This document shows, piece by piece, positions 9,001 through 62,750 of a DNA stretch of 64,000 nt; positions within the stretch are counted from its first letter, which is position 1; every line of letters starts with the position of its first letter. The translations under genes were made by a program, and so were the position numbers. Source of the DNA: an uncultured Acidimicrobiales bacterium (GTDB lineage Bacteria > Actinomycetota > Acidimicrobiia > Acidimicrobiales > SZUA-35); contig CAWDOA010000009.1 of NCBI GenBank assembly GCA_963803875.1, positions 26,216-90,215 on the forward strand, given 5' to 3'. The notes under the pieces are model-generated. The model was not told the DNA's origin, did not search any database, and saw nothing but the letters and a program-made list of their open reading frames with translations.

Positions 9001-10174
9001 GTGGAGCGTTTGACATGCACCGTCCAGGAGTACGCCTGGGGCGACACCGAATCCATCCCTCATCTGTTGGGACGAGAGCCTGACGGTAGGCCCAAGGCGG
9101 AGCTGTGGATGGGTGCACATCCTCGAGCCAGCAGCGTGTGTGCCGACGGAACACCATTGGTTGACCGTATTTCTGGCGACCCCAACACTGCCCTGGGATG
9201 CGAGCTTGCCGAACGTTTCGGTCAGTTGCCATTCCTCTTCAAGATATTGGCCGCTGGAGAGCCGCTGTCGATTCAGTCTCATCCCACTCTTGAGCAGGCT
9301 GTTGCCGGCTTCAACCGCGAGAACGAAGAGGGAATACCTCTCGACGCTCCGCATCGGGTCTACCGAGATGCCAACCACAAGCCGGAGTTGATCGCAGCGC
9401 TTACGCCGTTCCACGCCAAGTGTGGCTTCCGCCCGCTGTGGGAAAGCCGACAACTGTTCAGTCAGTTGGTGTCTGCGGGCGAACAAGCTGTTCTTCAGCC
9501 GCTCGTAGAGATCCTGTTCGATTCAGGCGATCCGGCCACGGTCTACAAGAATGCTCTGGCCCACATCCTGGCTGCCGAGCGTGACGAGGAGGCAATCGCT
9601 GCGGCCACCGTGCGGGCTGCACAGGAGCTTGGGTATCTCAGTGCGGCAGATCCGTTTCGAACCGAATTGGAGTGGACTGAACGGATTGCCTCATCCTTTC
9701 CTGGTGATTCGGGAGTAACCGTGGCGTTGATGCTCAACCATGTGGTGCTCGAGCCCGGGCAGGCGGTATTCCTCGAAGCCGGCAACCTCCATGCCTACCT
9801 CTCCGGAGTAGGCATGGAACTGATGGCCAATAGCGACAACGTCGTCGCGCGGGGGTCTTACTCCGAAACACCGTGATGTGGTCGAGCTTCTGCGGGTGCT
9901 CGACTGTTCCCCGATCGACGTTCCGGTTCAGACACCGGAGTCGGACACGTGGCGTTATGACTCGCCGGTGCCAGAGTTCACGCTCGAGCGTCTGATCGAT
10001 CCGAGAGGCACGTTTGAATCGCCGGGTCCCGAGATCGTCTTCGTACAACAAGGGTCGGTTGTTCTGAGCGGGGTGGCACTCCAGGCTGGTGATGTTGCCT
10101 GGGTTCCCGCATCCGAGGCTTTCTTCACAGCTGAGGGCGAGGCCACGTTGTGGCGAGCGGGTGTTCCGGTCTGA
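9001..10174 (+). pseudogene. manA: type I mannose-6-phosphate isomerase, interrupted by a +1 frameshift near 9847
   Basis: ORFs 9001-9876 and 9878-10174 are collinear with ManA (YAWG, ELWMGAHP, LPFLFK, QSHP, NHKPE, ANSDNV). Frame 1 reads ...ANSDNVVARGSYSETP*. Frame 2 from 9848 reads RGGLTPKHRDVVELLRVLD, the expected continuation. The shift lies in gtcgcgcggggg. Confidence 0.85.
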
Positions 10175-15926: not shown

Positions 15927-18671
15927 ATGAAGCTCTTCGACAAGATTCTCAAAGCGGGCGACGGAAAACGCCTGAAGACGATCCAATCAGTGGTTGCACC
16001 CGTCAACGCGCTCGAACCTGAGTTCGAAGCGATGAGCGACACTGATCTCCAAGCAAAGACCGGGGAGTTCCGCAACCGGCTCGACAACGGCGAGTCTCTC
16101 GACGACCTCGTGGTCGAGGCCTTTGCCGTAACTCGCGAGGCTGCCAAACGAGTCTTCGGGCAACGTCCTTACGACGTCCAGCTGATGGGCGGGGCTGCCC
16201 TTCATTTCGGTTGGGTGGCAGAAATGAAGACCGGTGAAGGCAAGACCCTTGTTTCCACCCTTCCGGTCTATCTCAACGCTCTCGCCGGACAGGGCGTGCA
16301 CCAGATAACGGTCAACGAGTACCTGGCCTCACGTGATGCCGAGTGGATGGGGTCGCTCCACAAATGGCTCGGGCTTAGGGTTGGGTTGGTCGTGCCTGGA
16401 ATGCCCAGCGGGCCGAACAAGAAGGCACAATACGACGCCGATATCACTTACGGAACCAACAACGAGTTCGGCTTCGACTATCTGCGTGACAACATGGCAC
16501 GCGACCGTGCCAGCATGGTGCAGCGAGGCCACCACTACGCCATCGTCGACGAGATCGACTCGATCCTCATCGACGAAGCCCGTACCCCGCTGATCATCAG
16601 CGGCAAGGTGAAGGGTGCGGCAGATCTCTACGATCGTTTCTCCCAAATCGCTGGTCGATTGCGACCCGACGACGACTACGAGGTTGACGAAGAGAAGCGG
16701 CTGGTCACCGTTACCGAGGAAGGGATCAACACTGTTGAAGCGGCTCTTGGGATCGAGAACCTCTACGACGGAGTGCAGGGAGATCTCGTACATCATCTGA
16801 ACCAGGCGCTGCGGGCCAAAGAGCTGTTCAAACGCGACAAGGACTACCTGATCCAAGACGGCGAGGTGAAAATCGTCGACGAGTTCACCGGCCGCGTCCT
16901 TGAAGGCCGACGTTGGTCGGATGGTCTGCATCAGGCAGTCGAGTCCAAGGAGGGCGTCGCCATCAACGATGAACAGCAGACGATGGCGACAGTCACTTTG
17001 CAGAACTATTTCCGTTTGTACGAAAAGCTTTCAGGAATGACAGGCACGGCTCAATCAGACGCCGCCGAGCTCGAAACAACCTACAAATTGCCGGTTGTGT
17101 CGATCCCTACCAACATGCCACTCATCCGTAAGGATGAAGCTGACTTCATATACAAGAACGAAGTCGGCAAATACGAAGCGATCGTCGCAGACGTCGAAGA
17201 ACGGGTGAAGCAAGGACAACCGATTCTTGTTGGAACCGCCTCGGTGGAAAAATCTGAGAAGATCAGTCAACTCTTCGATGAAAACCGAATCGAGCACGAG
17301 GTACTCAACGCCAAGCAACACTTCCGGGAAGCCGACATCGTGGCCCAGGCAGGTGCTCCTGGGGCAGTCACCGTGGCTACGAACATGGCGGGGCGAGGGG
17401 TCGACATCGTGCTGGGTGGAAATCCTGAGAAGTTGGCCGAACGTGACACCAAGGCTGAGGGTCTCGAATTGGGCACCGACGATTGGGATGCCTACTACCA
17501 GAAGCGGATGGACTACTGGATCCCAATCTGCGCAGAGCGACGAGAACTCGTCGAAGCAGCAGGCGGCCTCTACGTGCTGGCAACCGAGCGCCACGAATCC
17601 CGACGAATCGACAATCAGCTCCGAGGCCGTTCCGGCCGCCAGGGCGAGCCGGGTGAAAGTCGCTTCTACCTCAGCCTCGACGATGATCTGATGCGCATCT
17701 TTGCCAGCGGCACCCTCAGTGGGGTGATGGACCGGGCCATGCCCGACGACGTTCCGATCGAGTCCAAGATGGTGTCCAAATCAGTTGAGCGGGCTCAAAC
17801 CACCGTCGAGCAGCGCAACGCTGAAACCCGCAAGAACGTCCTGAAGTACGACGAGGTCTTCAACCAACAGCGGAAAATCATTTACGGTCGGCGGCTCCAG
17901 CTGATGGATCAGGGCGATCTCCGAGACGAGACACTCGAGGCAATCGAGACCACCGCCCAGGGACTCGTTTCTACCCACTGCGCCGAGAATCTGGATGACA
18001 CTTGGGATCTCGAGGGGCTCATCACCGACACCAAGCAGTTCTGGCCAACCGAGTTGACTCACGATGACTTGATTGACGCCGACGGTCTTGCAGGCCTCAC
18101 CGAGCGGCTCGCTGAAGATGCGATCGCGATTTATGAAGAGCGCGAGGCCGAGATGGGTGCCGATGTGATGCGGCAGGTCGAGAACCAGATCATGCTTCAG
18201 CTGATCGATCAGCGGTGGCGAGAGCACCTCACTGAAATGGATCAACTGCGGCAGGGCATCGGCCTTCGTGCGATGGGCCAACGCGACCCTCTCACCGAAT
18301 TCCAGCGGGAAGGTTTCGACATGTTCGCCGGCATGATGGCGGCGCTACAGAACGATTTCGTCCGCTACGTCATGCACGTCCAGCTGGTGGAGAAATCTCC
18401 ACCGCAGGAGAGCAAGGCTCCAGAGGATGCTCCGTTCCCCAAAGCCGTCGGCGCCGTGGCGGCAAAGGGATTGAACGCACCGGTGCCCACAGCCACCGAC
18501 GTGCACGCAGAGAAAGCCGACGCCGATAGCGGAGCCAAGCCGGGACAACCGCCGGAACCAGAGCGTGTGAACAAGCCAAAAGTGAACGACGAATGGGCCA
18601 ACACCGGTCGCAACGAACCATGCCCGTGCGGTAGCGAAAAGAAGTACAAGAAGTGCCATGGGGCCAGGTAA
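15927..18671 (+). CDS. secA: preprotein translocase ATPase SecA
   Basis: 914 aa. MKTGEGKTL Walker A, DEIDSILIDEARTPLIIS, C-terminal zinc finger CPCGSEKKYKKCHG. Confidence 0.98.
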   Translation: MKLFDKILKAGDGKRLKTIQSVVAPVNALEPEFEAMSDTDLQAKTGEFRNRLDNGESLDDLVVEAFAVTREAAKRVFGQRPYDVQLMGGAALHFGWVAEMKTGEGKTLVSTLPVYLNALAGQGVHQITVNEYLASRDAEWMGSLHKWLGLRVGLVVPGMPSGPNKKAQYDADITYGTNNEFGFDYLRDNMARDRASMVQRGHHYAIVDEIDSILIDEARTPLIISGKVKGAADLYDRFSQIAGRLRPDDDYEVDEEKRLVTVTEEGINTVEAALGIENLYDGVQGDLVHHLNQALRAKELFKRDKDYLIQDGEVKIVDEFTGRVLEGRRWSDGLHQAVESKEGVAINDEQQTMATVTLQNYFRLYEKLSGMTGTAQSDAAELETTYKLPVVSIPTNMPLIRKDEADFIYKNEVGKYEAIVADVEERVKQGQPILVGTASVEKSEKISQLFDENRIEHEVLNAKQHFREADIVAQAGAPGAVTVATNMAGRGVDIVLGGNPEKLAERDTKAEGLELGTDDWDAYYQKRMDYWIPICAERRELVEAAGGLYVLATERHESRRIDNQLRGRSGRQGEPGESRFYLSLDDDLMRIFASGTLSGVMDRAMPDDVPIESKMVSKSVERAQTTVEQRNAETRKNVLKYDEVFNQQRKIIYGRRLQLMDQGDLRDETLEAIETTAQGLVSTHCAENLDDTWDLEGLITDTKQFWPTELTHDDLIDADGLAGLTERLAEDAIAIYEEREAEMGADVMRQVENQIMLQLIDQRWREHLTEMDQLRQGIGLRAMGQRDPLTEFQREGFDMFAGMMAALQNDFVRYVMHVQLVEKSPPQESKAPEDAPFPKAVGAVAAKGLNAPVPTATDVHAEKADADSGAKPGQPPEPERVNKPKVNDEWANTGRNEPCPCGSEKKYKKCHGAR

Positions 18672-18674
18672 GTC

Positions 18675-19772
18675 GTGGCTGATATCGATGATGTCATTCA
18701 GGAATTGCGTCGAGACCTGGACGAGGCCGACGAGTACCTGAAGATCGAGCGCCTGAAGGCTCGGCTTCCTCAGCTGGAAACAGAAATGGGACGCCCCGAT
18801 CTTTGGGATGACTCCGAACGCGCCCGGGAGGTTCAGACCGAGTTCACCTCGGTGAAGAGTGACCTTGACCTTTACGACGAACTAGGCGGTCACGTCGATG
18901 ACCTCGAGGCCCTTGTGGAGTTGGCGGCGGAGGAAGGCGATGGTTCCCTCGACGTTGAAATCACCGAGCTTTCCGAAAGTCTGACTCACCAGTTCGCTCA
19001 ACTCGAACTCCGAGCCTTGTTCACCGGCGAATACGACCAGGGCGATGCCGTGTGCGAAATTCACAGCGGCGCAGGCGGAACCGATAGCCAGGACTGGGCT
19101 GAGATGCTCTACAAGATGTACGAGCGATGGGCCAAGAACAAAGGCTTTTCGATTGAGGTTGACGACTGGCAGGAGGGTGCCGAGGCCGGGATCACCACCG
19201 CAGTGTTCAATATCCGTGGACGGTATGCCTACGGTCTTCTTCAAGCCGAACGCGGCGTTCATCGGCTCGTTCGGATCTCGCCATTCGACCAACAAGCTCG
19301 TCGGCACACCGCTTTCGCCAGCTTTTCGGTATGGCCCGATGTGGAAGAGAGTGCTCAGACCATCGACATCCCCGACAAGGACCTCCGGGTTGATGTCTTT
19401 CGATCTTCCGGTGCGGGTGGCCAGCACGTCAACACCACCGATTCGGCGGTGCGGATCACGCATCTCCCTACCGGCACGGTTGTCTCCTCCCAGGACGAGC
19501 GGAGTCAGCATCAGAACCGAGAAACGTGCATGAAGAAGCTCACGGTGCGGCTCCTCGAGCTGGAACGGCAGAAGCGAGAAGATGAACTAGCCGCCGAAGC
19601 GGGGGAATCAAAGAGCACCGAGTGGGGCAGTCAGATCCGCAGCTACGTGCTCCAGCCTTATGAACAAGTGAAAGATGAGCGAAGCGGCCTAACGTCTGGC
19701 AACCCCAAGGGTGTTCTCGACGGCGACGTGGAACCGTTCATGGAAGCCTGGCTCCGCTGGCGTCGTCACTGA
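18675..19772 (+). CDS. prfB: peptide chain release factor 2
   Basis: 365 aa, GTG start. SPF-type region and GGQ motif (SGAGGQHVNTTDSAVR). One uninterrupted ORF with no programmed +1 frameshift site. Confidence 0.95.
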   Translation: MADIDDVIQELRRDLDEADEYLKIERLKARLPQLETEMGRPDLWDDSERAREVQTEFTSVKSDLDLYDELGGHVDDLEALVELAAEEGDGSLDVEITELSESLTHQFAQLELRALFTGEYDQGDAVCEIHSGAGGTDSQDWAEMLYKMYERWAKNKGFSIEVDDWQEGAEAGITTAVFNIRGRYAYGLLQAERGVHRLVRISPFDQQARRHTAFASFSVWPDVEESAQTIDIPDKDLRVDVFRSSGAGGQHVNTTDSAVRITHLPTGTVVSSQDERSQHQNRETCMKKLTVRLLELERQKREDELAAEAGESKSTEWGSQIRSYVLQPYEQVKDERSGLTSGNPKGVLDGDVEPFMEAWLRWRRH

Positions 19773-32285: not shown

Positions 32286-33120
32286 ATGACCCTCACCGTT
32301 GATGTCACCGACCACGTCGCAACGATCACGTTGAACCGACCTGACACGTTGAACGCATTCAACGTGCAGATGATGCGTGACATGATCACAGCTCTGGATC
32401 GAACCGATGATGACGACGATGTGCGGGCCGTGATCGTCACCGGTGCAGGCCGCGCATTCTGCGCCGGAGCGGATCTTGAAGGTGGCGGCGACACGTTCGA
32501 CCATGGCTCGGACTCCGGACCGGGTTCGTCGTGACGGAGGCGGAATCCTCACCCTCCGGATCTTCGAGTCAACCAAGCCAATCATCGCCGCCATCAACGG
32601 CCCGGCGGTCGGCGTCGGAATCACCATGACGCTCCCGATGGACATCCGCCTAGCCTCGGACCGGGCAAAGATCGGATTCGTCTTCACCAAGCGGGGCATT
32701 GTGCCCGAAGCCGCCAGTTCGTGGTTCTTGCCCCGTCTGGTTGGGATGCCAACGGCCCTTGAATGGTGCTACAGCGGACGGGTCATGGACGCAGACGACG
32801 CCGCTGCCGGTGGGTTGTTGCGCGTGGTGCCCCACGATGAGCTTCTGGGGCGAGCCCGAGCGTTGGCCTCGGAGATATCCCAGAACGCCCCGGTTTCAGT
32901 GGCGCTCACCCGGCGAATGTTGTGGCAGGGCCTCACCTTCGACCATCCAATGGAAGCCCATCGCACGGATAGCAGAGCGATAGCGGCTCTCGGACGAAGT
33001 GCGGACGCGAAAGAGGGCGTCATGAGTTTCCTCGAGAAACGAAAGCCGGCCTGGACGAATCGGCCGAGCAGCGACACTCCCGACGTATTCCCCCAGGATG
33101 TTGCTCGCACGTTCAGCTGA
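32286..33120 (+). pseudogene. enoyl-CoA hydratase/isomerase (crotonase) family, frameshifted near 32505-32530
   Basis: ORF 32286-32534 carries the N-terminal crotonase motif (RAFCAGADL). It continues in the +1 frame (ORF 32443-33120) with ...RDGGGILTLRIFESTKPIIAAINGPAVGVG.... The shift is in gactccggaccgggtt. Confidence 0.8.
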
Positions 33121-33748
33121 CCGTTGAGCTCACGCGGTCTGCCCATACAGCGAACAGTGGATCACGTCCCGATGTCGGCACTTCGACCCCGGATGGTTCA
33201 CCCCATCCCGCCGAAAGCGAGAAATAGCCAGCCACGATCCCAATCCGCTGCTCGTCACTGGCTGCCAGCCAACCTCTGATCGCCTTGGTTGGAAAGAGCC
33301 GATTGGAGAAACACACAACTGCGCGCCCTCCTGGTCTCAGAACTCGACCGATCTCATCGAACACCTCCAGCGGGTGTTGCAGATAGTCGACCGACACCGC
33401 ACAAACGATCCCATCGAAGACTCGTCCGCGAAACGGCAGGCTCGGATGTGCGTTGAGATCGGCGACCACGCCGCCGCAGGCTTGGATGTTTTGAGCGAGT
33501 TCGACCGGGTTCATCCCGTGGACCACCAAACGTTTGGGTTGGCAGGTGAAGTGGGAGATCCAGCTCCCCATGAGATCCAGAACATCGCCCTCGATCGAGA
33601 GTTGCTCATAGAGCGACCCAATAGCTGCTCGTGCGCCATCGTCGATATGGGCGACGATCCGAGGCTGTGTGTAGAACCAGCGATCATTGGTTGGATCCTG
33701 GCGGTGGAAGAAGTTCGACGGGAAATGGGCGTAGCGAGCGTCGTTCAT
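33113..33748 (-). CDS. class I SAM-dependent methyltransferase
   Basis: Start at ATG 33748 (MNDARYAHFPSNFF...), in an ATGA overlap with the MFS stop. Motifs VLDLMGSW and LRPGGRAVV. Confidence 0.7.
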   Translation of the reverse strand: MNDARYAHFPSNFFHRQDPTNDRWFYTQPRIVAHIDDGARAAIGSLYEQLSIEGDVLDLMGSWISHFTCQPKRLVVHGMNPVELAQNIQACGGVVADLNAHPSLPFRGRVFDGIVCAVSVDYLQHPLEVFDEIGRVLRPGGRAVVCFSNRLFPTKAIRGWLAASDEQRIGIVAGYFSLSAGWGEPSGVEVPTSGRDPLFAVWADRVSSTVS

Positions 33749-34920
33749 GCGGGCTTGGGCTGATGGCTGCGCATGGTGAGTTGCAGGGCGACGATGGTTG
33801 CGGTCGCCGTGACCAACCAAAGGGCGAGGTTGAGCGAGGCGCCCGGGCGATGAAGGTGATGACCACCGGCATCGCCATTCCCACGTACGCAGCGAAGTAG
33901 AAGGTTGCATTCAGCGCCCCACGATTGCTTGGGTCGGCTATCGACTCGGTGATTGCCAAGCCAGCGGTCAGAATGGTGCCCGACGCTGCCCCGAGCGCAA
34001 TTGCGGCAATCGGAATCAGCTGCCAAATATCGGTCACAAAGGCCGTGGTTCCCAGCACATAACCGACTACACCGACCCACATTCCGATCTTCAGGCCGGC
34101 TGTCGACGTTGCAGCTCGTTTGAGCAACGGTCGTGAAAGGAGGGCCGCTAGTGCGGTAGTCGTGCCCGTTATGCCCGCCACGAGCACGTCGTTGCTGCCA
34201 CCGATCGCGTCACGCAGGATCACCGGGAATAGAGCAAAGCTGGTGGAGGGGAAGCCAAAGACCCACAGGGCCGCGGGCGCAAGCGTGGTGAGGAAACCTG
34301 CGGGCCGACGCCGGCACTCCGAGTTGGGGGCGCAGCGAAACAGCTCGATCTGGACTCTTGGTTTCGGGAAGATTCCACATCCCCAGCAGCACTAGTGCCG
34401 TGGCTCCGGCGTGCAGCACATAGGGCACGATCAGAGGCGAGGGTCCGACACGTTCATAGAGCGCCGACGTGATCGGTCCGAAACCGAACCCGATGTACAC
34501 CATCACCGTGGTGACACCGGCAATGTGTAAACGATCTCGGTTGTCCAGCGGTTTGCTGTTCAGTTCGGTTAGCCAGGCGGTGCCGACCGAGAGCACAGCG
34601 CCGCTTACAGCCCCGAGCAGAAGTCGGCCGGCGAATAGCAGTGCGAGGGAGTCACGACCGAAAATCAGGACGATGGAGGCCACCGCCGATGCAGCTGTGA
34701 ACGGCAGGATCAGCGGACGGCGCCCGAACCGATCCGAAAGCCTGCCGGCGAACAGAAGGGACACGAGGATCCCACCCACGTAGACGGTGAAAATCCCTGT
34801 TGCACCAAGATCAGAAAGACCCAGGCGATCCTGATACCGAAGGATCAGTGGCGTGCTCACGTTGGTGCCCCATGCCACAACGAACAAACCGGCAGCAAGA
34901 ATCTTCTGCTGCCGGTTCAT
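33745..34920 (-). pseudogene. MFS transporter, two frameshifts
   Basis: Three consecutive ORF pieces. 34210-34941 holds TM1-6 with motif A GRLSDRFGRRP. 33684-34223 holds TM7-11. 33745-34080 ends in ...ASLNLALWLVTATATIVALQL.... Shifts lie at about 34290-34370 and about 33835-33850 (gcccgggcgcc). Confidence 0.75.
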
Positions 34921-34943
34921 CGATTCGAGTCTGAAACCCAATG

Positions 34944-35867: not shown

Positions 35868-36239
35868 GGGGCTGATCGGTTTCGACGTCGAGACCAGAAG
35901 CTGTTTGTGCGACCCGAGTTGCTCAGACTCGTGAAACGGGGCTTTTTGAAGACGGCAACAAAACCGACTTCGCTCTTGCCGCCTAATTTTTTAGGTAGTA
36001 CAGAGGAAAACTGCGAGCCGCGAGGCCACGCAGGGCCTGACCACTACAGCCCGGTAACAGAAGTAGTGGTGGACGGTGGGAGAGACCACTGACGGACAGG
36101 GAAAGACTTCTGACACCGAGGAAAGACTCGGCGGTGAACTAACCCGGTAGATGGACAGCCGTAAGTCCGAACCACGGGAATGGTCGTAGCAGAAGCAGTA
36201 CCTGCTCGGCGGACGGGGGTTCGATTCCCCCCAGCTCCA
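35868..36239 (+). ncRNA. ssrA: tmRNA (SsrA)
   Basis: 5' GGGGCTGATCGGTTTCGAC pairs with 3' CAGCTCC, including the G3:U wobble (alanine identity). T-arm GGGGGTTCGATTCCCCC and discriminator A are present; CCA is not fully encoded. Internal tag ORF ...GAC GGC AAC AAA ACC GAC TTC GCT CTT GCC GCC TAA (35951-35986). Confidence 0.95.
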
Positions 36240-36244
36240 CGTAG

Positions 36245-36665: not shown

Positions 36666-37130
36666 CTAGTGCCGGCTGCGCTCGGCCAACTCTCTGCGAG
36701 CCTCGCGGTCGGCGTCGCGTTTGGCGATGATCTGGCGCTTGTCGACGGTTTTGCGACCCTTGCCGAGGCCGAGCTCCAGCTTCACTCGGCCGTCCTTGAA
36801 ATAGAGCGCCATCGGCACCAGCACCCCTTGGTCCTGATTGACCTTGGAGGACAGGCGGACCAACTCGTGCTTGTGCATCAGCAGTTTGCGGCGACGCGCC
36901 CGGTCGAGCACCACATGAGTCCCTGCCCGGGAATATGGCGCAATGTGTAGGCCCACCAAGAACAGCTCGTTGTCCTCGAAACGGGCGTAGGCATCGTTGA
37001 GTTTGACGTTGGATTCCCGAATCGCCTTCACCTCGGCGCCAGCAAGCACGATGCCTGCTTCGAAGGTTTCAGTGATCTCGAAATCCAACCGGGCTTTTCG
37101 ATTCGTCGTGATCATTTTGATCTTGGCCAT
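36666..37130 (-). CDS. smpB: SsrA-binding protein SmpB
   Basis: 154 aa. NRKARLDFEI...AGIVLAGAEVKAIR...LLMHKHE... is the canonical SmpB pattern. Confidence 0.95.
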   Translation of the reverse strand: MAKIKMITTNRKARLDFEITETFEAGIVLAGAEVKAIRESNVKLNDAYARFEDNELFLVGLHIAPYSRAGTHVVLDRARRRKLLMHKHELVRLSSKVNQDQGVLVPMALYFKDGRVKLELGLGKGRKTVDKRQIIAKRDADREARRELAERSRH

Positions 37131-40879: not shown

Positions 40880-41938
40880 ATGTCGCAGCATCCACCAGTT
40901 TTCCCTGCGCCTGCTGGGAAACTGACCCGGATGCAGATCGCCGACACAACTCATGACCACGAGTTTGGCCCCTCTGATGCGGCGAGGCGTGGATCCACCA
41001 CACCATTCGAACAGGATGCAACACATTTGTTGTTGCACCAGCTCGCCGAGATCGGGCGCACGTTCGACACCTGTGGTGATCAGATTTGGGGGTTCGGCTT
41101 CAATCCAATGAAGATCCCGATGCTGTTTGTGTTCAAGAGTGTCGACTTGAGTGCGCGCTTCGGGATCTGCAGCGGACCAGTGGATTACGAGCGGCTGAGC
41201 ACGATCGACGGCGCGGTGTTTGGAGAAATCGTCGAGAGCAGACCGTTGGCGCGACGGCGCCACGACCTCGCACACACTGATCTCCGATTTCATTGGGTGA
41301 ACGATTCGATCGCCGACCTGTTCCAGCCTGCTCTGAACCAGGAGGTGCGCTTTGATGCCGAGCTCGCAAGAATCGAGTCATTGGTGTTCGATTTCTCAGG
41401 TGACAACTACCGGCCCCAATCGTGGGAGTTCGCGCGTTTCGTGGTCCACGAGGCGTTCCACCAGCATCAGCTCTTCGATGCCAAATGGCGCGTGCCAGTC
41501 GGATATGACCCAGCGACCCCTCCGTGTTCGGATTCCCTGAACGGCCAGCTCGCCCGCGAAGAGGCTCGACTCCTCGAGCTTGCAGCGCTGAGTCGGTCTG
41601 ATCACCAAGCGCAGAACTTTGTTCACCGATTCCTCGAAATGCGTGCTGAACGTCACAGACGATGGCCCGATACCGAGATGCTGGAGCGGGGTACTGAACA
41701 GGTGGAGGGGTCCGCACGATACGTCGAGAACCTGTACAGCCGCTTCAATGGGCGGGCAGATCGTCTCAACATGCCACCCGAGGCATTACGGCATGAGCGA
41801 GACTGGGTCGACTTTGGTCGTCTCTATAGAACCGGTGCGCGCATGCTCGAAATCTTGGATCGGTTTGAGATTTCGTGGCGCAAGCGATTAATTCAGGGTG
41901 AGGATCCGTACGGCATTCTGTGCCAGACGTTGAACTAG
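40880..41938 (+). CDS. hypothetical protein with HExxH motif (putative metallopeptidase)
   Basis: 352-aa ORF (alternative start ATG 40931). Single HEAFH motif in ...FARFVVHEAFHQHQLF.... No family recognised by eye. Confidence 0.45.
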   Translation: MSQHPPVFPAPAGKLTRMQIADTTHDHEFGPSDAARRGSTTPFEQDATHLLLHQLAEIGRTFDTCGDQIWGFGFNPMKIPMLFVFKSVDLSARFGICSGPVDYERLSTIDGAVFGEIVESRPLARRRHDLAHTDLRFHWVNDSIADLFQPALNQEVRFDAELARIESLVFDFSGDNYRPQSWEFARFVVHEAFHQHQLFDAKWRVPVGYDPATPPCSDSLNGQLAREEARLLELAALSRSDHQAQNFVHRFLEMRAERHRRWPDTEMLERGTEQVEGSARYVENLYSRFNGRADRLNMPPEALRHERDWVDFGRLYRTGARMLEILDRFEISWRKRLIQGEDPYGILCQTLN

Positions 41939-44662: not shown

Positions 44663-45325
44663 GTGGCTGAGTTGCAGTTTTTCTTCGGAACGATGGGATC
44701 GGGCAAGTCGACACAGGCGCTCCAGGTTCACTACAACCTGACCGAGCGAGGGCTCCGGTGTGTCCTGCTCACCCAATTGGACCGTACCGAGGGGGTGGTT
44801 TCCAGCCGCCTGGGGATTCAGGCCGAGGCGCTGATCATCAATCCGACCGTCGACGTATACAGGCTGGTTGCTCACGCTCATCGGACCGGTCTCGGACTTG
44901 ATGCAGTCATTTGTGATGAGGCCCAGTTCTACGAACCGGCCCAGATCGACCAGTTGGCTCGTGCCGTCGATGAGCTGCGGATCGATGTCTACGCATACGG
45001 ACTGCTCACCAGCTTCCAGGGGGAATTATTTCCCGGTTCAAAGCGCCTGATGGAAATGGCCGACAAGCGAAACGAGCTTCAAGTCGAGGCCCGATGTTTT
45101 TGCGGAAAGCGGGCAACCCACAACGCCCGTTTGGTCAACGGACGTCAGGTGTACGACGGCGAGCTGAAGATCGTTGGGGATACGGGAGAGTCGACAGCGG
45201 AAGTCTCCTACGACCTGCGTTGCCGCGAGCACTGGCTGGCCGGCAAGGACGATGCACGACAACGAGCGTTGTTCGACGAGCTGCGACTCGACGAGCTGCC
45301 CGTAGAGTTCGAGCATGGGTTCTGA
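44663..45325 (+). CDS. tdk: thymidine kinase
   Basis: P-loop GTMGSGKST, CDEAQF, C-terminal Cys cluster (CFCGKRATHNARL...LRCREH). Confidence 0.92.
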   Translation: MAELQFFFGTMGSGKSTQALQVHYNLTERGLRCVLLTQLDRTEGVVSSRLGIQAEALIINPTVDVYRLVAHAHRTGLGLDAVICDEAQFYEPAQIDQLARAVDELRIDVYAYGLLTSFQGELFPGSKRLMEMADKRNELQVEARCFCGKRATHNARLVNGRQVYDGELKIVGDTGESTAEVSYDLRCREHWLAGKDDARQRALFDELRLDELPVEFEHGF

Positions 45326-45932
45326 AACTATTCGGGTCGACAAGTGGTGTGACCCGATCTGACCGTGGTGTTGGATAACCAGTCGTTGGCTGGTTGAAGA
45401 GGTTGCTCCCCACCGAGATCTCGATATCCACTATCGATCGATCTCGCTGAAGGTCAAGAACAACAGCGACGACGAGGCGGCTCAATTCACCCACAATCTG
45501 TTGCGGGTGGCCGAGTCAGTTCGGGCGTCCCAAGGAGATGCCCCCCTCAAGGATCTCTACTGGGAGATGTGTCGTCGCATCCATCATGATGACGACCGCG
45601 CCTTTGCCCCCGAGGATGTTCTGGAGGCTGTCGGTGTCGACATGTCTCACGCCGCAGCTTTTTCGGACCCAGCCTGGGACGACGCAGTCGAGGCCGAAAC
45701 AGCGGCTGGAATCGATCTGGCAGGTGAAGACGTGGGCACTCCCATCATCGCTCTCACTTATCCCGATGGATCCCAGTCGGCGATCTTCGGACCGGTGATG
45801 ACCCCCATTCCTCGAGGTCAGGCTGCGCTTGATCTGTGGGACGGCATGGCGAAGGTGATGAGCGTGCCGGGATTCTTTGAACTGAAACGCACCAGGGACG
45901 TGGGTCCCGAAACAGGCCCTCGTCCGGCGTGA
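45315..45932 (+). CDS. DsbA-like (Rv2466c-family) thiol reductase with in-frame TGA at the first Cys of CPWC: candidate selenoprotein or nonsense pseudogene
   Basis: One frame from ATG 45315 to stop 45930-45932, interrupted only by TGA 45360-45362. Translation: MGSETIRVDKWCDPI*PWCWITSRWLVEEV...GEDVGTPIIAL...FGPVMTPIPRG...FFELKRTR. The ORF track lists only the distal 143 aa. Confidence 0.6.
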
Positions 45933-46354: not shown

Positions 46355-47020
46355 TCAGGGGAGTGTCCAATCGATCGGCCCGCGCCCGCCTGCGCTCAAT
46401 AGCTCGTTGGTGCGGCTGAAGGGCCGAGATCCGAAGAAACCGCGGGATGCCGAAAGCGGGCTTGGATGCGGTGAAGTCACAACCGCATGCTGGTCGAGAT
46501 CGAGTCGAACCATTTTCTGCTGAGCTGACGCGCCCCACAGAATGAACACCACCCGGTCAGATTTGGCGTTCACCACGTCGATGACCGCGTCGGTGAACTG
46601 CTCCCAGCCTTGGCGCCGATGGGAGTTCGCTTGACCGGCCCGAACGGTCAGGACAGTGTTGATCAGAAGCACGCCTTGACGGGCCCACGGGATGAGCGAA
46701 CCTGACGTGGGTGAAGGGATCTCAAGATCCGACGACAGCTCCCGAAAGACGTTCTTGAGCGAGGGTGGTGGCGGTGTCGGCGGCTTCACAGAGAAGCACA
46801 GGCCGTGAGCTTGACCGGGACCGTGATAGGGGTCCTGGCCAAGAATCACGGCTCGAACCGAACTCAGCGGTGTGAGGTGCAGCGCGGAAAACACTTCATT
46901 GTGGGGTGGATACACCGGGCCCTGTTGTCTCTCCGACGCCACGAACTCCTGCAGCGGTGCCCAATAGGGCTTTGCGAATTCACTTCGGAGGACGGGGTTC
47001 CAGTCCGTTCTTGGTGCCAC
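46355..47020 (-). CDS. ung: uracil-DNA glycosylase (family 1)
   Basis: GQDPYHGPGQAHGLCFSV and HPSPLSA motifs. Confidence 0.93.
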   Translation of the reverse strand: MAPRTDWNPVLRSEFAKPYWAPLQEFVASERQQGPVYPPHNEVFSALHLTPLSSVRAVILGQDPYHGPGQAHGLCFSVKPPTPPPPSLKNVFRELSSDLEIPSPTSGSLIPWARQGVLLINTVLTVRAGQANSHRRQGWEQFTDAVIDVVNAKSDRVVFILWGASAQQKMVRLDLDQHAVVTSPHPSPLSASRGFFGSRPFSRTNELLSAGGRGPIDWTLP

Positions 47021-47053
47021 CTACCCGTTCTATCCGAACAGTACGATCCGTCG

Positions 47054-48334
47054 GTGCGCTGTTCCCCGGTTCCTCACGTCGGCGCATCGCTTTCCCGCTG
47101 GGTAATGGCAATAGCCCTTTCAAGTGCCGTCGCTTGCTCGGCGGGTTCAGCGCCGGATCAAGCCGTTGCATCAAGCGGGCTCGGTGAACCAGTGGCCGCT
47201 ACCCCCACCTCGGCTCCTGTAACCACGTCACTCCCATCCACGACGACAACGACTCAAGCCTCGACAACCACAACCGATCCGGTTCGTGCCCTGCTGGAGA
47301 CGATGACTCTTCAGGACAAGATTGGTCAAATTCTCATGCCGGTGGTGCGAGGCACTGGTGTCGACAGGGTGACCGGTGCCGACGTGGCGTACAACACAGC
47401 GCTCGGGGGCTTTGGGACCCCGGCGGAGTTGGTGTCGGCCTATCGTCTCGGTGGGATCATGTATCTGGGTCCCAACGTGGAATCACCGACCCAAATCAAA
47501 GAATTCAGTGACGGGTTGCAGGAAGTTGCGGCTGAGAACGGACTGCCGCCTCTCCTGGTGGCGGCAGATCAGGAGGGCGGCAGGGTCCGTCGAATCCGAG
47601 GTGAAGGTGTCACCGTCGTTGGTTCCGCCAGATCACTGGCCGGCGACGCCACAGCCGTGTTCGAGAACGCCAGTCTGACCGGCCAGGAGATGAGAGCGAT
47701 TGGCATAAACGTAGTATTCGCCCCGGTCGCCGATGTGGTTCGGTCCGATGTCGGGGTGATCGGCAACCGTTCATACGGATCGGACTCAGCGCTCGTAGCT
47801 GAGATGGTCGCGGCATCGGTGGAAGGGTTGCGGAATGGCGGAGTTGCTGCGGTCGCCAAGCACTGGCCCGGACACGGAGCCACCGAGGTTGACAGTCACA
47901 AGGCGCTGCCGATTGTTGAATCGACTGAGGAGGAATGGCGAACCACAGATCTTCCGCCGTTCGTGGCAGCAGTGAAGGCCGACGTGAATGCGTTGATGGT
48001 GGGTCACCTGGCTCTCCCAAGCCTCGGTGTTTTGGAACCCGCTACGATTTCCCCCAAGCTCACCGGGGACCTCATACGCACCGAGCTGGGTTTCGACGGC
48101 GTGCTCTTCACCGATGCGATGGACATGAGAGCTCTTGATGGCATCGACGAGGCCGAGTTGGCGGTACTCGTCTTGGAAGCCGGAATCGACATCCAGTTGG
48201 TCCCTCCTGATCTCGTGGCATCCGTCTCCGGAATCTCCCGAGCCGTTTCCACGGGCCGCATCAAGGAGGAACGCCTCGACGCAAGTGTCGCAAGAATCCT
48301 GATTATGAAACGGGATCTTGGGTTGATCGACTGA
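47054..48334 (+). CDS. glycoside hydrolase family 3 beta-N-acetylhexosaminidase-like lipoprotein
   Basis: KHWPGHG and GH3 N-terminal domain pattern. Start placed at GTG 47054 to give a signal peptide with lipobox (...WVMAIALSSAVAC); ATG 47105 is an alternative. The ORF-track start 46805 would overlap ung. Confidence 0.75.
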   Translation: MRCSPVPHVGASLSRWVMAIALSSAVACSAGSAPDQAVASSGLGEPVAATPTSAPVTTSLPSTTTTTQASTTTTDPVRALLETMTLQDKIGQILMPVVRGTGVDRVTGADVAYNTALGGFGTPAELVSAYRLGGIMYLGPNVESPTQIKEFSDGLQEVAAENGLPPLLVAADQEGGRVRRIRGEGVTVVGSARSLAGDATAVFENASLTGQEMRAIGINVVFAPVADVVRSDVGVIGNRSYGSDSALVAEMVAASVEGLRNGGVAAVAKHWPGHGATEVDSHKALPIVESTEEEWRTTDLPPFVAAVKADVNALMVGHLALPSLGVLEPATISPKLTGDLIRTELGFDGVLFTDAMDMRALDGIDEAELAVLVLEAGIDIQLVPPDLVASVSGISRAVSTGRIKEERLDASVARILIMKRDLGLID

Positions 48335-60056: not shown

Positions 60057-60347
60057 TTCACTATTGTGGCTCAGGAAGAAGCCAGTATGTCGTGAGGGTC
60101 AGGTTTGGGTGGACATCGATGACAGATCGCACAGGGGTCCGACTCTTTCGGGCTTTCATCGCCTACTTTCTTGGTCCCGAGCGGAGTGGTGTCGAAAGGC
60201 GCCCCTGCTTTGTTGTCCCAGTACTTCTACGATCAAGGCTTTCGACCGCCCCATGAGTTCGACAGCAGCAGCGCGCCAGAGACCCCGCGGACGTGCCGGT
60301 ACATGCGGTGCCGTTTCCAATCCCAGCTATTCCAGACCAAGGCCAGC

Positions 60348-62750
60348 ATGACCGGATCCGCTGTGTCGCCGCTTGGCCGTTACCGCCTGCGCTTGATGGC
60401 ACTGGCTGCGTTGGTTCTACTCGGTGGAGCGGCAGCGAGTATCGCACTGACGGTTTCCGCCGAGGCCGAGCAGCCCTGGGTCGAGTCCGGATGGAGCGGG
60501 GGTGAGCTGCCGAATGTGTCGGTCGTCCTTCGCAGTATCTCGAGCTCGGATCCCTCCATCGAAGAACGTCTGTTGCCAGCGGTACGCCAAATCGCTGGGG
60601 TCGAGTCCGCCTTTGTCGATGTGCTCCCTACCGGCCCGCCAGTTATTCACCTCGTGGTGCCGGATGCCGGTCGGCTCGACGAAGTGACCGAGGAGATAGC
60701 GGAGTTGTCATCCGAAGTTGGTGAGGGTGAACTGTTGATTGGCGGTCAGGTCGTGGTCGACAATGAAGTCAACGGTTCGATCACCTCGGCAACCTTGGTA
60801 GCACTTGTTCCTGTTGTCATTATCCTCGGATTCGTCGTTGCAGCCCTGCACGGATCCGTCGTGGGGGCCGCAGCCACAATTTCGGCGGGCCTGTCGGCCC
60901 TCCTCGGAGGAATGATCGGTTCGAGCGTGGCAGGTGCCTTCGATGGCACGCTCGCCACAACCGTCGTGCCCGGGGCTCTTGCGGGTCTCTTGGTGGGCGT
61001 CACGGTCGTCTTTCGACTCATTACGTGGTTCAAGCACCCCGACGCCGATGATGCAACCGACAACATACTGGCATCGGTCATCGCCCAGCTGCCCGACCTC
61101 GGCCTGGTACTCGGCAGCCTTGGCGTTTTGCTTGTCGGAGGGCTCTTCTTTGATGGTTGGAATGCTCCCGTATCGATCTTCATGGGTGCCCTTTTCGGAG
61201 CGCTCGCAACTCTGGCAACCATGCCGGCCCTGCTCTCCACCCAGGGTTCGATTCACGACAACGCTGAGTTTCAAACGGTTCCGATCAAGATCTCTGACGG
61301 CCGCGACCTGCCACTCGCCGTCCTGGTGGCGATCGCCGTATTGCTGCTGGGACTGGGAGCAGTGGCAGCGAGCACGACGTCGTCCCGTTCGCTTCTTGAC
61401 GCCTCTGCGGTTGACAATGAGTCCGCTCAGGTATCGGAGCAGTTGGTTCGGCTGGGTGGCGACCCCTCTGCGGCTATCAGAGCAACGGCTCCCGATGGCG
61501 CCGAGGACTGGTTCGCCGACTGGTCGATGAGCGCGAGCCGATACCCCGGCGTCGAGTGGGTTGCCACCGCAAGCGGGCGTTACGAAGATGGAGAGTTGGT
61601 TTCCGATGCTTCGACGGCGCCACCGATCGGCGCAACAACAGCGATCATCAATCCCTCAGAATCAGCCCGATCCCGCCAAAGCCAAGACACGGTACGTGCC
61701 TTATCCGAGATTGAAGCAGACGGGGAGGTTCGGCTCGAGGGTCTCCCGGTAGCAGCGCACGATGCGACCCAAGGAGCTGATCGATCGTTATGGGTGATGG
61801 TTACCGCACTCTCGGTCCTTGCCGGAGCTGTAGTCCTGTTTCTCGTGGGCGACGCCGGCCTGGCTGTTGTGGTAGTTGCGACCCGACTACTCACCTCAGC
61901 CGCCTCGCTTGGGGCGTATCACGTCGTTGTCGATACCCCGACTGCCGGCGAACTCGAGATCCTCCTGTTACTTCTATCCACTGGTGTTTCCCTCTTTGAG
62001 ATTGGCTTGATCCGAATGATCCTTGAAAATGAAGAATCCCACATTGGCTCCCTGGTATCAGCGGCGATGCGGTCCGGAGGCGGTCAGCCCGTCGCAGGGC
62101 TTGGTGTCATTGCGCTCGCCGGAATAGGACTGCTCGCATCCAGCGTCGATCTCGTAGCTGCGTTCGGCATTGCGCTTGCCGTCGCCGCGATCATCGAGGT
62201 GGTATTGGGTATCTGGCTGTTACGGCCCGTCATCATCGGCGAACAGACGCTCCGGTCAGGGTCTCCTGGAGGGCGCGGTCGTTCTATCATCGGCCGTCGT
62301 GGACCGTCCGAGGGTGAACCGGTCAACCCCGAATGGCGCCGTGTCGTTTCGGGTTTGCTCCGTGAAGAGTTTCGTTTCCAGACAGAGCCCGATGAGGCCG
62401 ATTTGGGAACCGTCTTCGTCGAGGACACGCCGCTGTATAGCGAGCTGTCCCAACACAACCTGCGCCTTCGACAGAATGGTTTGAAGATCCGCGGTGAAGG
62501 GCCAACTGTTGTCAGTGTCAAGGCGGTGAATGATGGCGACCCCGTGACCGTGGCTATCACGGTCGATCACCCGTCTCGACAACTACTCGCCGCTGACGGA
62601 AGATTGCTCGGCGTGAGGGCTGCAGAACGCAGAGACGGCATGCTCTGGCTGGCGCAGGACCCCAGTGGCCGGTACCGAATCGCGGAGGCGGTCGACATGG
62701 GTAGCGGTCTTCCGATCCCTGAAGAGTCCAAGTCACAAACGGTCTCGTAG
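60348..62750 (+). CDS. MMPL/RND-superfamily-like membrane protein with C-terminal cytoplasmic extension
   Basis: Start taken at ATG 60348. Two homologous halves, each 1 TM + extracytoplasmic domain + 5 TM. A roughly 150-aa soluble tail follows aa about 640. Confidence 0.55.
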   Translation: MTGSAVSPLGRYRLRLMALAALVLLGGAAASIALTVSAEAEQPWVESGWSGGELPNVSVVLRSISSSDPSIEERLLPAVRQIAGVESAFVDVLPTGPPVIHLVVPDAGRLDEVTEEIAELSSEVGEGELLIGGQVVVDNEVNGSITSATLVALVPVVIILGFVVAALHGSVVGAAATISAGLSALLGGMIGSSVAGAFDGTLATTVVPGALAGLLVGVTVVFRLITWFKHPDADDATDNILASVIAQLPDLGLVLGSLGVLLVGGLFFDGWNAPVSIFMGALFGALATLATMPALLSTQGSIHDNAEFQTVPIKISDGRDLPLAVLVAIAVLLLGLGAVAASTTSSRSLLDASAVDNESAQVSEQLVRLGGDPSAAIRATAPDGAEDWFADWSMSASRYPGVEWVATASGRYEDGELVSDASTAPPIGATTAIINPSESARSRQSQDTVRALSEIEADGEVRLEGLPVAAHDATQGADRSLWVMVTALSVLAGAVVLFLVGDAGLAVVVVATRLLTSAASLGAYHVVVDTPTAGELEILLLLLSTGVSLFEIGLIRMILENEESHIGSLVSAAMRSGGGQPVAGLGVIALAGIGLLASSVDLVAAFGIALAVAAIIEVVLGIWLLRPVIIGEQTLRSGSPGGRGRSIIGRRGPSEGEPVNPEWRRVVSGLLREEFRFQTEPDEADLGTVFVEDTPLYSELSQHNLRLRQNGLKIRGEGPTVVSVKAVNDGDPVTVAITVDHPSRQLLAADGRLLGVRAAERRDGMLWLAQDPSGRYRIAEAVDMGSGLPIPEESKSQTVS

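Follow-up and report, generated by a model that had tools for sequence, protein, structure and literature searches.

An in-frame UGA in an Acidimicrobiales Rv2466c/mycoredoxin-2-like reductase gene very probably encodes selenocysteine

The 64-kb window analyzed here (the whole stretch of 64,000 nucleotides, from contig CAWDOA010000009.1 of an uncultured Acidimicrobiales bacterium) carries a complete gene (45315-45932, +; 205 codons plus stop) for a reductase of the Rv2466c/mycoredoxin-2 (Mrx2) type with a predicted DsbA-like thioredoxin fold. The gene is interrupted once, by a TGA (45360-45362, +) at residue 16, the site of the nucleophilic first Cys of the family's C-P-W-C redox motif. It is very likely, with a probability that we place at roughly 0.9, that this TGA is a genuine selenocysteine (Sec) codon in a functional gene. 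Comparative evidence carries this reading, namely, the conservation of the TGA among relatives, purifying selection on the gene, and a covarying RNA hairpin specific to the TGA-bearing forms; the doubt that remains concerns mainly the presence of the Sec machinery in the source genome. The same evidence supports the initial annotation of this DNA, which had proposed a Sec-containing Rv2466c/DsbA-like reductase with a selenocysteine insertion sequence (SECIS) element after the UGA.

The frame 45315-45932 translates as MGSETIRVDKWCDPI, the internal stop, PWCWITSRW...GPRPA and the terminal stop, and TGA 45360-45362 is its sole interruption. With Cys put in for the internal TGA, the product aligns to the full length of the PF22234 ("Rv2466c-like") profile (1-180/180; 137.7 bits against a cut-off of 27; E=6.3e-40) and, more weakly, matches PF01323 ("DSBA"; 37.4 bits, above the 25.6 threshold), while no NCBIfam model matches it. 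Sequence matches in the PDB are 4WKW, 4ZIL, 4NXI, and 5XUR (E 4.5e-37 to 3.3e-35, residues 6-199), and since the match to 4NXI, 4ZIL, and 5XUR runs end to end, the product is predicted to adopt the DsbA-like fold, a thioredoxin domain with a helical insertion. In the residue-by-residue alignment to the Rv2466c structure sequences and the orthologous 4WKW, the TGA falls on the first Cys of C-P-W-C, so that the redox motif of the window protein reads U-P-W-C (Sec16-Pro-Trp-Cys19; 45360-45371, +). The initial annotation had described a product of about 205 residues, collinear end to end with the Rv2466c family, whose frame stays open back to an ATG that overlaps the stop of the upstream tdk gene and whose single TGA replaces precisely the first Cys; translation, profile, and structure alignments agree with this description, and the overlap is plainly visible (45315-45325, +; start ATG 45315-45317, tdk stop TGA 45323-45325). 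As a measure of family size, an all-against-all search of representatives returned 1277 of them at E<=1e-3, 511 at E<=1e-10, and 26 at E<=1e-30, a search that cannot split Sec from Cys forms, the cluster representatives being mostly full-length Cys proteins.

The behavior of the codon across relatives was followed in 84 related loci (designated L001 and so on), comprising two GTDB Acidimicrobiales metagenome-assembled genomes (MAGs), two loci on contigs of 3.6-3.7 Mb, and 80 metagenome contigs that are the best-scoring 80 of at least 541 hits. The codon aligned to the window TGA is TGA in 58 of the 84 loci (54 distinct sequences) and TGC or TGT in the other 26. It is TGA, not TGY, in both MAG orthologues (L001 and L002, at 85% and 80% identity) and in 56 further loci, among them the ~50%-identical homologues on the 3.6-3.7 Mb contigs, and it is invariant in all 54 distinct TGA-form sequences down to ~45% protein identity. 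Within the motif, the Pro and the second Cys are likewise invariant in these 54, and the Trp is retained in 50 and replaced by Phe in four. U-P-W-C is thus a chemical variant of the family's defining C-P-W-C motif and not a loss of it. A scan of the window for other in-frame TGAs near Cys codons gave 93 candidates, nearly all of them noise in this 60% GC sequence, and a credible redox motif surrounds the one at 45360 only.

The region upstream of the TGA bears the marks of translation. In every TGA locus the codon is preceded, at a distance of 9-15 codons, by an ATG, which a conserved x-I-[DE]-F-W-V-D-P-I peptide follows; the nine codons that precede the TGA vary, across the 54 sequences, almost only at their third positions, as illustrated by the position entropies of Pro -2 (0/0/1.68 bits) and Asp -3 (0/0/0.69 bits). 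Such third-position variation indicates that the region is translated and shares its frame with the part downstream. When the window is set against L001, the 13 codons leading up to the TGA show seven synonymous differences and no non-synonymous one. Over the gene, the Nei-Gojobori ratio of non-synonymous to synonymous substitution rates (dN/dS) is 0.045-0.124, at a dS of 1.4-2.2, for the window against L001, L002, and L005 of its own clade. Purifying selection therefore acts on both sides of the TGA.

Directly downstream of the UGA, and within the coding sequence, lies a bacterial SECIS-type hairpin (45376-45396, +), composed of a 5′ arm at 45376-45384, a GUU loop at 45385-45387, and a 3′ arm at 45388-45396. 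The stem has 9 bp and begins 13 nt after the UGA, which places the loop 22 nt from it. A hairpin had been noted before at 45377-45395; its existence and its place just after the UGA are borne out, and its extent, as given there, was too short. Folded alone (25 nt), the hairpin has a free energy of -10.0 kcal/mol (z = -3.86), and none of 200 shuffled sequences was as stable.

The comparative data on this hairpin come from an alignment of the 54 nt from the TGA onward in the 54 distinct TGA sequences, which is free of gaps because that part of the gene has suffered no insertions or deletions. In the helix (columns 17-25 with 29-37), 98.6% of 486 cells hold standard pairs, and three helix pairs account for 24 cells with compensatory double changes. 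The helix has a covariation score of 0.233, against a mean of 0.110 for column shuffles, none of 500 of which reaches the observed value, and at most 0.082 when the helix is slid by 1-3 columns. Pair 21-33 links two third codon positions, one in a Thr and one in a Val codon, and is G-C in 41 sequences, C-G in 5, A-U in 3, U-A in 2, and G-U in 2. In the clade of the window, two more pairs have been remodeled through amino-acid changes (GCC/Ala to AGT/Ser and GTC/Val to CTG/Leu), and the helix is kept. RNAalifold, supplied with no structure, yields the same helix. Moreover, synonymous-site entropy is 0-1.2 bits at codons +5 to +11 and 1.5-1.9 bits at codons +12 to +20, a depression of the kind that an RNA structure superimposed on the coding sequence would produce. 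In the Cys forms (22 distinct sequences), the same columns are 69.2% paired, a level reached by 126 of 500 shuffles and hence that of shuffled sequence. The hairpin is conserved, covarying, and specific to the TGA forms.

The geometry of the hairpin also agrees with what is known of its bacterial counterparts. The published bacterial SECIS (bSECIS) model specifies a loop of 3-9 nt, an upper stem of 4-16 bp, a UGA-to-loop distance of 16-37 nt, and a minimum free energy of -7.5 kcal/mol or lower, and it requires that one of the first two loop positions be a G, after which G or U is the usual base (PMC13188914). Like the prototype of that consensus, Escherichia coli fdhF, the window hairpin lies in the coding region right after the UGA, and its values (3-nt GUU loop, 9 bp, 22 nt, -10.0 kcal/mol) are all within the published ranges (PMC13188914). 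The apical loop has G then U in the window and an invariant G in 54 of 54 sequences. At 3 nt the loop has the minimum size that the model allows, and binding by SelB is a prediction. The E. coli fdhF SECIS stem has a bulged U, which the window stem does not. In four of the 54 sequences (L004, L006, L040, and L061), an Arg codon is AGG instead of CGT and the closing C-G pair opens, leaving an 8-bp stem and a 5-nt AGGUG loop in which the G stays within the first two positions.

Several observations weigh against reading the UGA as Sec, or against parts of that reading. In its 61-nt context the hairpin has a single-sequence z of only -1.33, which is not significant alone; the window sequence by itself is not convincing for a SECIS element, and it is the comparative data that lift the hairpin above chance. 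The hairpin overlies the conserved peptide WITSRWLV and the Cys forms are still 69% paired, so part of its conservation is at the level of the protein. A search of Rfam with 45200-45600 at E<=10 matched no SECIS or other family; bacterial SECIS elements are poorly represented in that database. The 84 loci are phylogenetically related and a best-scoring subset of the hits, so the cell counts overstate the number of independent events, and the window assembly, which holds frameshifted genes, is of imperfect base-level quality. No tRNA-Sec was found in the 64-kb window (ARAGORN and Rfam, which gave only a transfer-messenger RNA, tmRNA) or in 55 TGA-bearing loci (ARAGORN), nor were selA, selB, or selD in the window or any of the loci (tblastn with E. 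coli SelA, SelB, and SelD), although 64 kb is too small a sample for such absence to be informative. Finally, Pfam scans of the window gave no msh, mtr, or mca gene, and a dependence of the window protein on mycothiol would rest only on mycobacterial proteins that are ~40-45% identical.

What is known of related organisms lends the Sec reading plausibility at the level of the lineage. Ilumatobacter coccineus, I. nonamiensis, and Candidatus Microthrix parvicella are positive for SelD, SelA, and SelB and have 15, 10, and 7 selenoproteins, respectively, and Acidimicrobium ferrooxidans is negative for the Sec trait (PMC5029168 supplement; Peng et al. 2016). The order thus has selenoprotein-rich members and the trait is patchy within it. 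In addition, selA, selB, selC, and selD are reported from all 84 complete Actinomarina genomes (2026 preprint, bioRxiv 10.64898/2026.04.03.716425).

Among the other explanations of the codon, the best surviving, though improbable, is that the UGA is decoded as something other than Sec, be it by reassignment to Trp or Gly, by near-cognate read-through, or by insertion of Cys via tRNA-Sec under selenium scarcity. The base that follows the internal UGA is C in 54 of 54 sequences, and UGA-C is the weakest bacterial termination context and a leaky one, which favors this explanation, as does the fact that no Sec machinery was seen in the window or the locus flanks. Genome-wide reassignment is nevertheless excluded, because the window holds, right behind secA (15927-18671), an intact gene for RF2 (18675-19772, +), a class-I release factor with both GGQ and the SPF tripeptide, and because TGA ends 31 of the 49 long open frames, that of the selenoprotein gene included, and is their commonest stop. 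Furthermore, opposite this codon homologues show Cys alone and in no case Trp or Gly, and the codon is accompanied by a SECIS-type hairpin that fits the published model. Insertion of Cys through the Sec pathway would still need the Sec machinery, and as such is a sub-case of the Sec reading. The RF2 gene itself is a single uninterrupted frame, apparently without the +1 programmed frameshift that the prfB of many bacteria has.

Somewhat less probable still is a pseudogene, in which an Rv2466c-like gene that once encoded Cys was inactivated by a TGY-to-TGA nonsense mutation, as part of a build-up of lesions in the genome. In its favor, two genes of the window, for an enoyl-CoA hydratase and an MFS transporter, are broken, each being split over two frames, and no Sec machinery is seen there. 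A dead gene would not, however, share its TGA with 54 distinct sequences down to ~45% protein identity, continue under selection upstream of the TGA at a dN/dS of 0.045-0.124 while dS is saturated within its clade, or be followed by a covarying hairpin specific to that codon. The gene has no other lesion, and no additional inactivating lesion was found in the sister sequences. The shared TGA, the covarying hairpin, and the dN/dS together effectively refute a pseudogene.

It is very improbable that the real gene is the short downstream open reading frame (ORF) beginning at TTG 45501, which would encode a truncated DsbA-like protein without CxxC and leave the upstream 45 nt untranslated. Public annotation speaks for it: the database proteins nearest to the window product (65-99% identity) are without exception gene calls cut short at the N-terminus, of 121-185 aa, and the closest entries as a whole, 121-191 aa, are all annotated in this way. 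MFW2381224.1, NNE95949.1, and MFN0026417.1 are examples, being truncated "disulfide bond formation protein DsbA" entries of 160-191 aa with differing artificial starts, and many ~50%-identical matches begin with MTARWVV, right after the CPWCW block. Truncated entries are, however, the expected outcome when gene callers meet an in-frame stop. The called starts vary between sequences and fall within conserved Pfam positions, a product from 45501 would miss a third of the fold, at its beginning, together with the active site, and upstream of the TGA the third positions vary as in translated sequence and an ATG is always present at a distance of 9-15 codons. None of the public Sec-form entries examined carries a selenoprotein label.

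Least probable of all, and to be dismissed, is a sequencing or assembly error behind which the true codon is TGC or TGT: frameshift-type lesions elsewhere in the window do betray an imperfect assembly, but these are indels and not substitutions, 57 other loci from many unrelated assemblies share the TGA, and the independent assembly of a near-identical strain (L087; JGI 3300045962, contig Ga0484979_0013827), identical at 240 of 241 nt over 45280-45520, has the same TGA.

If the UGA is read as Sec, expression of the gene would proceed as follows. The gene probably shares a transcript with tdk, and translation would start at ATG 45315 and bring the ribosome to the UGA at codon 16, in its weak UGA-C termination context. 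There the 9-bp, GUU-loop hairpin at 45376-45396 would act as a bacterial SECIS and recruit SelB-GTP-Sec-tRNA(Sec), so that Sec is inserted at codon 16 in place of release by RF2 and translation runs on to TGA 45930. Both the binding of SelB and the actual insertion of Sec are what we infer from the codon and its hairpin. The terminator (45930-45932, +) is itself a TGA and stands without a hairpin context, which gives one codon two meanings inside a single gene. This would yield a reductase of 205 residues with a DsbA fold, a member of the Rv2466c/mycoredoxin-2 family whose active site is Sec16-Pro-Trp-Cys19. By homology, the Sec16 selenolate would take the role of the nucleophilic Cys and attack substrates that, by analogy with the mycobacterial enzymes, are presumably S-mycothiolated or disulfide-bonded; a selenenyl-sulfide would form with Cys19 or mycothiol, to be re-reduced through mycothiol and mycothione reductase. 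Mycothiol is the putative reductant by the same analogy. A mycothiol S-conjugate amidase has been conserved throughout the Acidimicrobiia (PMC5962788), which makes mycothiol metabolism plausible in the class.

One of the closest known counterparts is Rv2466c of Mycobacterium tuberculosis (Mrx2; 4NXI, 4ZIL, and 5XUR), a DsbA-fold mycothiol-dependent reductase and nitroreductase, also named mycoredoxin-2, that acts through its CPWC motif (PMC6178380, PMC9841431) and needs this motif for activity (PMC9841431). Rv2466c, its M. leprae orthologue 4WKW, and the window protein have PF22234 in common, end to end, and share the DP-x-[C/U]-PWCW-ITSRW block together with the GTP and ELKRTR motifs. They differ in host, Acidimicrobiales for the window protein and Mycobacteriales for Rv2466c, and at the nucleophile: Rv2466c uses Cys and has no need of a hairpin, whereas the window gene has a UGA (Sec) at the nucleophilic first Cys and a SECIS hairpin after it.

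A second point of reference is the "DsbA-like" selenoproteins with a UxxC motif, described in 2005 from the Sargasso Sea as nine sequences of COG2761 (PMC1088965), counted in 41 organisms in 2016 (PMC5029168), and still listed in a 2026 review as "DsbA-like protein form 1, PF01323" (PMC13188914). This Sargasso form 1 (COG2761/FrnE-like) has the same layout as the window protein, in which a short N-terminal strand leads to a U-P-[WF]-C that opens helix 1 of a thioredoxin fold of the DsbA type, and it too has a hairpin directly downstream of the UGA (PMC1088965 and supplement, PMC13188914). The Sargasso sequences carry uPWC[YWF] where the window protein has U-P-W-C, and in both the Sec is N-terminal in the redox pair. 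The resemblance is limited, however. Four full-length Sargasso sequences match PF01323 at E 1e-21 to 1e-30 and do not match PF22234 at E<=0.01, the profile on which the window protein scores 137.7 bits; by phmmer, they resemble the window protein only over its first ~45 residues; and they have the G-[VI]-P cis-Pro loop of FrnE/DsbA, in place of which the window family has GTPI...FGPV...ELKRTR. These profile matches and the ~45-residue extent of similarity put the window protein in a different subfamily from the Sargasso examples, and on this comparison of sequences it represents a sister subfamily (Rv2466c/Mrx2-like) to the published Sargasso form, not a member of the same family.

A third protein, NCgl2478 of Corynebacterium glutamicum, is annotated as DsbA and is described as a mycothiol-dependent thiol-disulfide reductase with a C-P-F-C center (PMC8280269). 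This center may be likened, by its description and not by sequence, to the U-P-F-C of four of the 54 Sec sequences (L014, L026, L062, and L084); unlike the Sec forms, NCgl2478 is a Cys protein. Our literature search returned nothing that pairs Rv2466c with selenocysteine or names PF22234, and a search on mycoredoxin and selenoprotein returned nothing relevant by title and abstract. It is quite possible that genome surveys have counted Ilumatobacter orthologues under "DsbA-like".

The distribution of Sec and Cys forms offers a glimpse of how the two are related. In a neighbor-joining tree of 84 proteins, Cys forms occur at several separate places among the Sec forms, with more distant Cys forms outside. 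The tree is crude, is drawn from the best-scoring 80 of at least 541 hits, and does not count Sec/Cys events; its pattern is consistent with repeated exchange between Sec and Cys. Three Cys forms (L081, L082, and L083, with TGT/TGC at codon positions 1528, 1528, and 968) group beside Sec forms. L081 and L083, nested among the Sec forms, keep eight of the nine hairpin pairs, and L082 is identical to both over the peptide around the codon. The hairpins of L081 and L083 look like SECIS relics left after a recent conversion of Sec to Cys.

Much of the ground on which these findings stand was already known, and current understanding is not overturned. UxxC DsbA-like selenoproteins have been known since 2005, Sec use and a wealth of selenoproteins are established in cultured Acidimicrobiales, and no kind of bacterial selenoprotein is commoner than the UxxC thiol oxidoreductases. 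What is new is Sec in the Rv2466c/Mrx2-like subfamily, sister to the known DsbA-like selenoproteins, and the novelty is modest. Whether the Sec form of mycoredoxin-2 (Rv2466c-like, PF22234) amounts to a distinct, unnamed selenoprotein family is a proposal that we advance tentatively, at slightly less than even odds. To our knowledge, the Rv2466c/Mrx2 family has so far been known only as a Cys enzyme; the finding links selenium to a family that includes a mycobacterial prodrug activator and mycothiol-dependent reductase and, if true, provides enzymologists of Mrx2 with a natural Cys19-to-Sec variant. Repeated natural exchange of Cys and Sec at the nucleophile would support a catalytic role of that residue.

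There are also practical consequences. Reading the UGA as Sec restores a complete redox enzyme from truncated calls that lack the active site, and a recognized UGA gives Acidimicrobiales MAGs one more marker of Sec use. The models so far published for bacterial SECIS elements are weak, and the unusually clean covarying set of 54 sequences furnishes a test case for them, in which one pair, made up of two synonymous third positions, occurs in all four Watson-Crick combinations. Among the sampled aquatic and marine Acidimicrobiia-like sequences, the Sec form is commoner than the Cys form (58 of 84 loci). Should this enzyme depend on mycothiol, as its mycobacterial homologue does, these abundant bacteria would rely on selenium for part of their mycothiol redox network.

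The gene sits in a conserved neighborhood. Its upstream neighbor is tdk (thymidine kinase; 44663-45325, +; Pfam TK, E=1.4e-26), and the overlap of the two genes and their order recur in L001, L002, and L087. The overlap of the ATG with tdk suggests co-transcription and translational coupling, and the two genes likely form one transcription unit. The full order in the window is HAD hydrolase, alpha/beta hydrolase, tdk, selenoprotein gene, small ORF, ung (minus strand), and GH3, which is matched in L001 up to the selenoprotein gene, in L002 from tdk onward, and in L087. The GH3 (NagZ-like) ORF (46805-48334, +) overlaps ung (46355-47020, -) by ~200 nt, and its Pfam domain begins at residue 168, so its real start is probably well downstream of 46805.

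The two broken genes mentioned above lie elsewhere in the window. The enoyl-CoA hydratase gene (32286-33120, +) is split into 32286-32534, which matches ECH_1 positions 4-63, and 32443-33120, which matches positions 80-250; the frameshift, at ~32480-32530, is either an assembly indel or a real lesion. The MFS transporter gene (33684-34941, -) is split near 34215 into 34941-34210 and 34223-33684, both of which match MFS_1. In these two genes, the earlier statement that the other lesions of the window are indels holds. A further frameshift is possible in the 9001-10174 region (+), where a type I phosphomannose isomerase ORF of 291 aa ends at TGA 9874-9876 and is followed, in another frame, by a 98-aa ORF (9878-10174) with no Pfam match.

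The tmRNA (Rfam RF00023, 90.8 bits) adjoins smpB, the two lying at 35868-36242 (+) and 36666-37130 (-). The tag peptide that ARAGORN assigns to it, ASREATQGLTTTAR, is without the usual hydrophobic ending in ...AA and may be mis-predicted. Three ORFs on the plus strand, at 3530-6352, 40880-41938, and 60171-62750 (940, 352, and 859 aa), are of coding-like composition with no Pfam match at the thresholds used, and the 352-aa ORF at 40880-41938 is also called in the independent contig L087.

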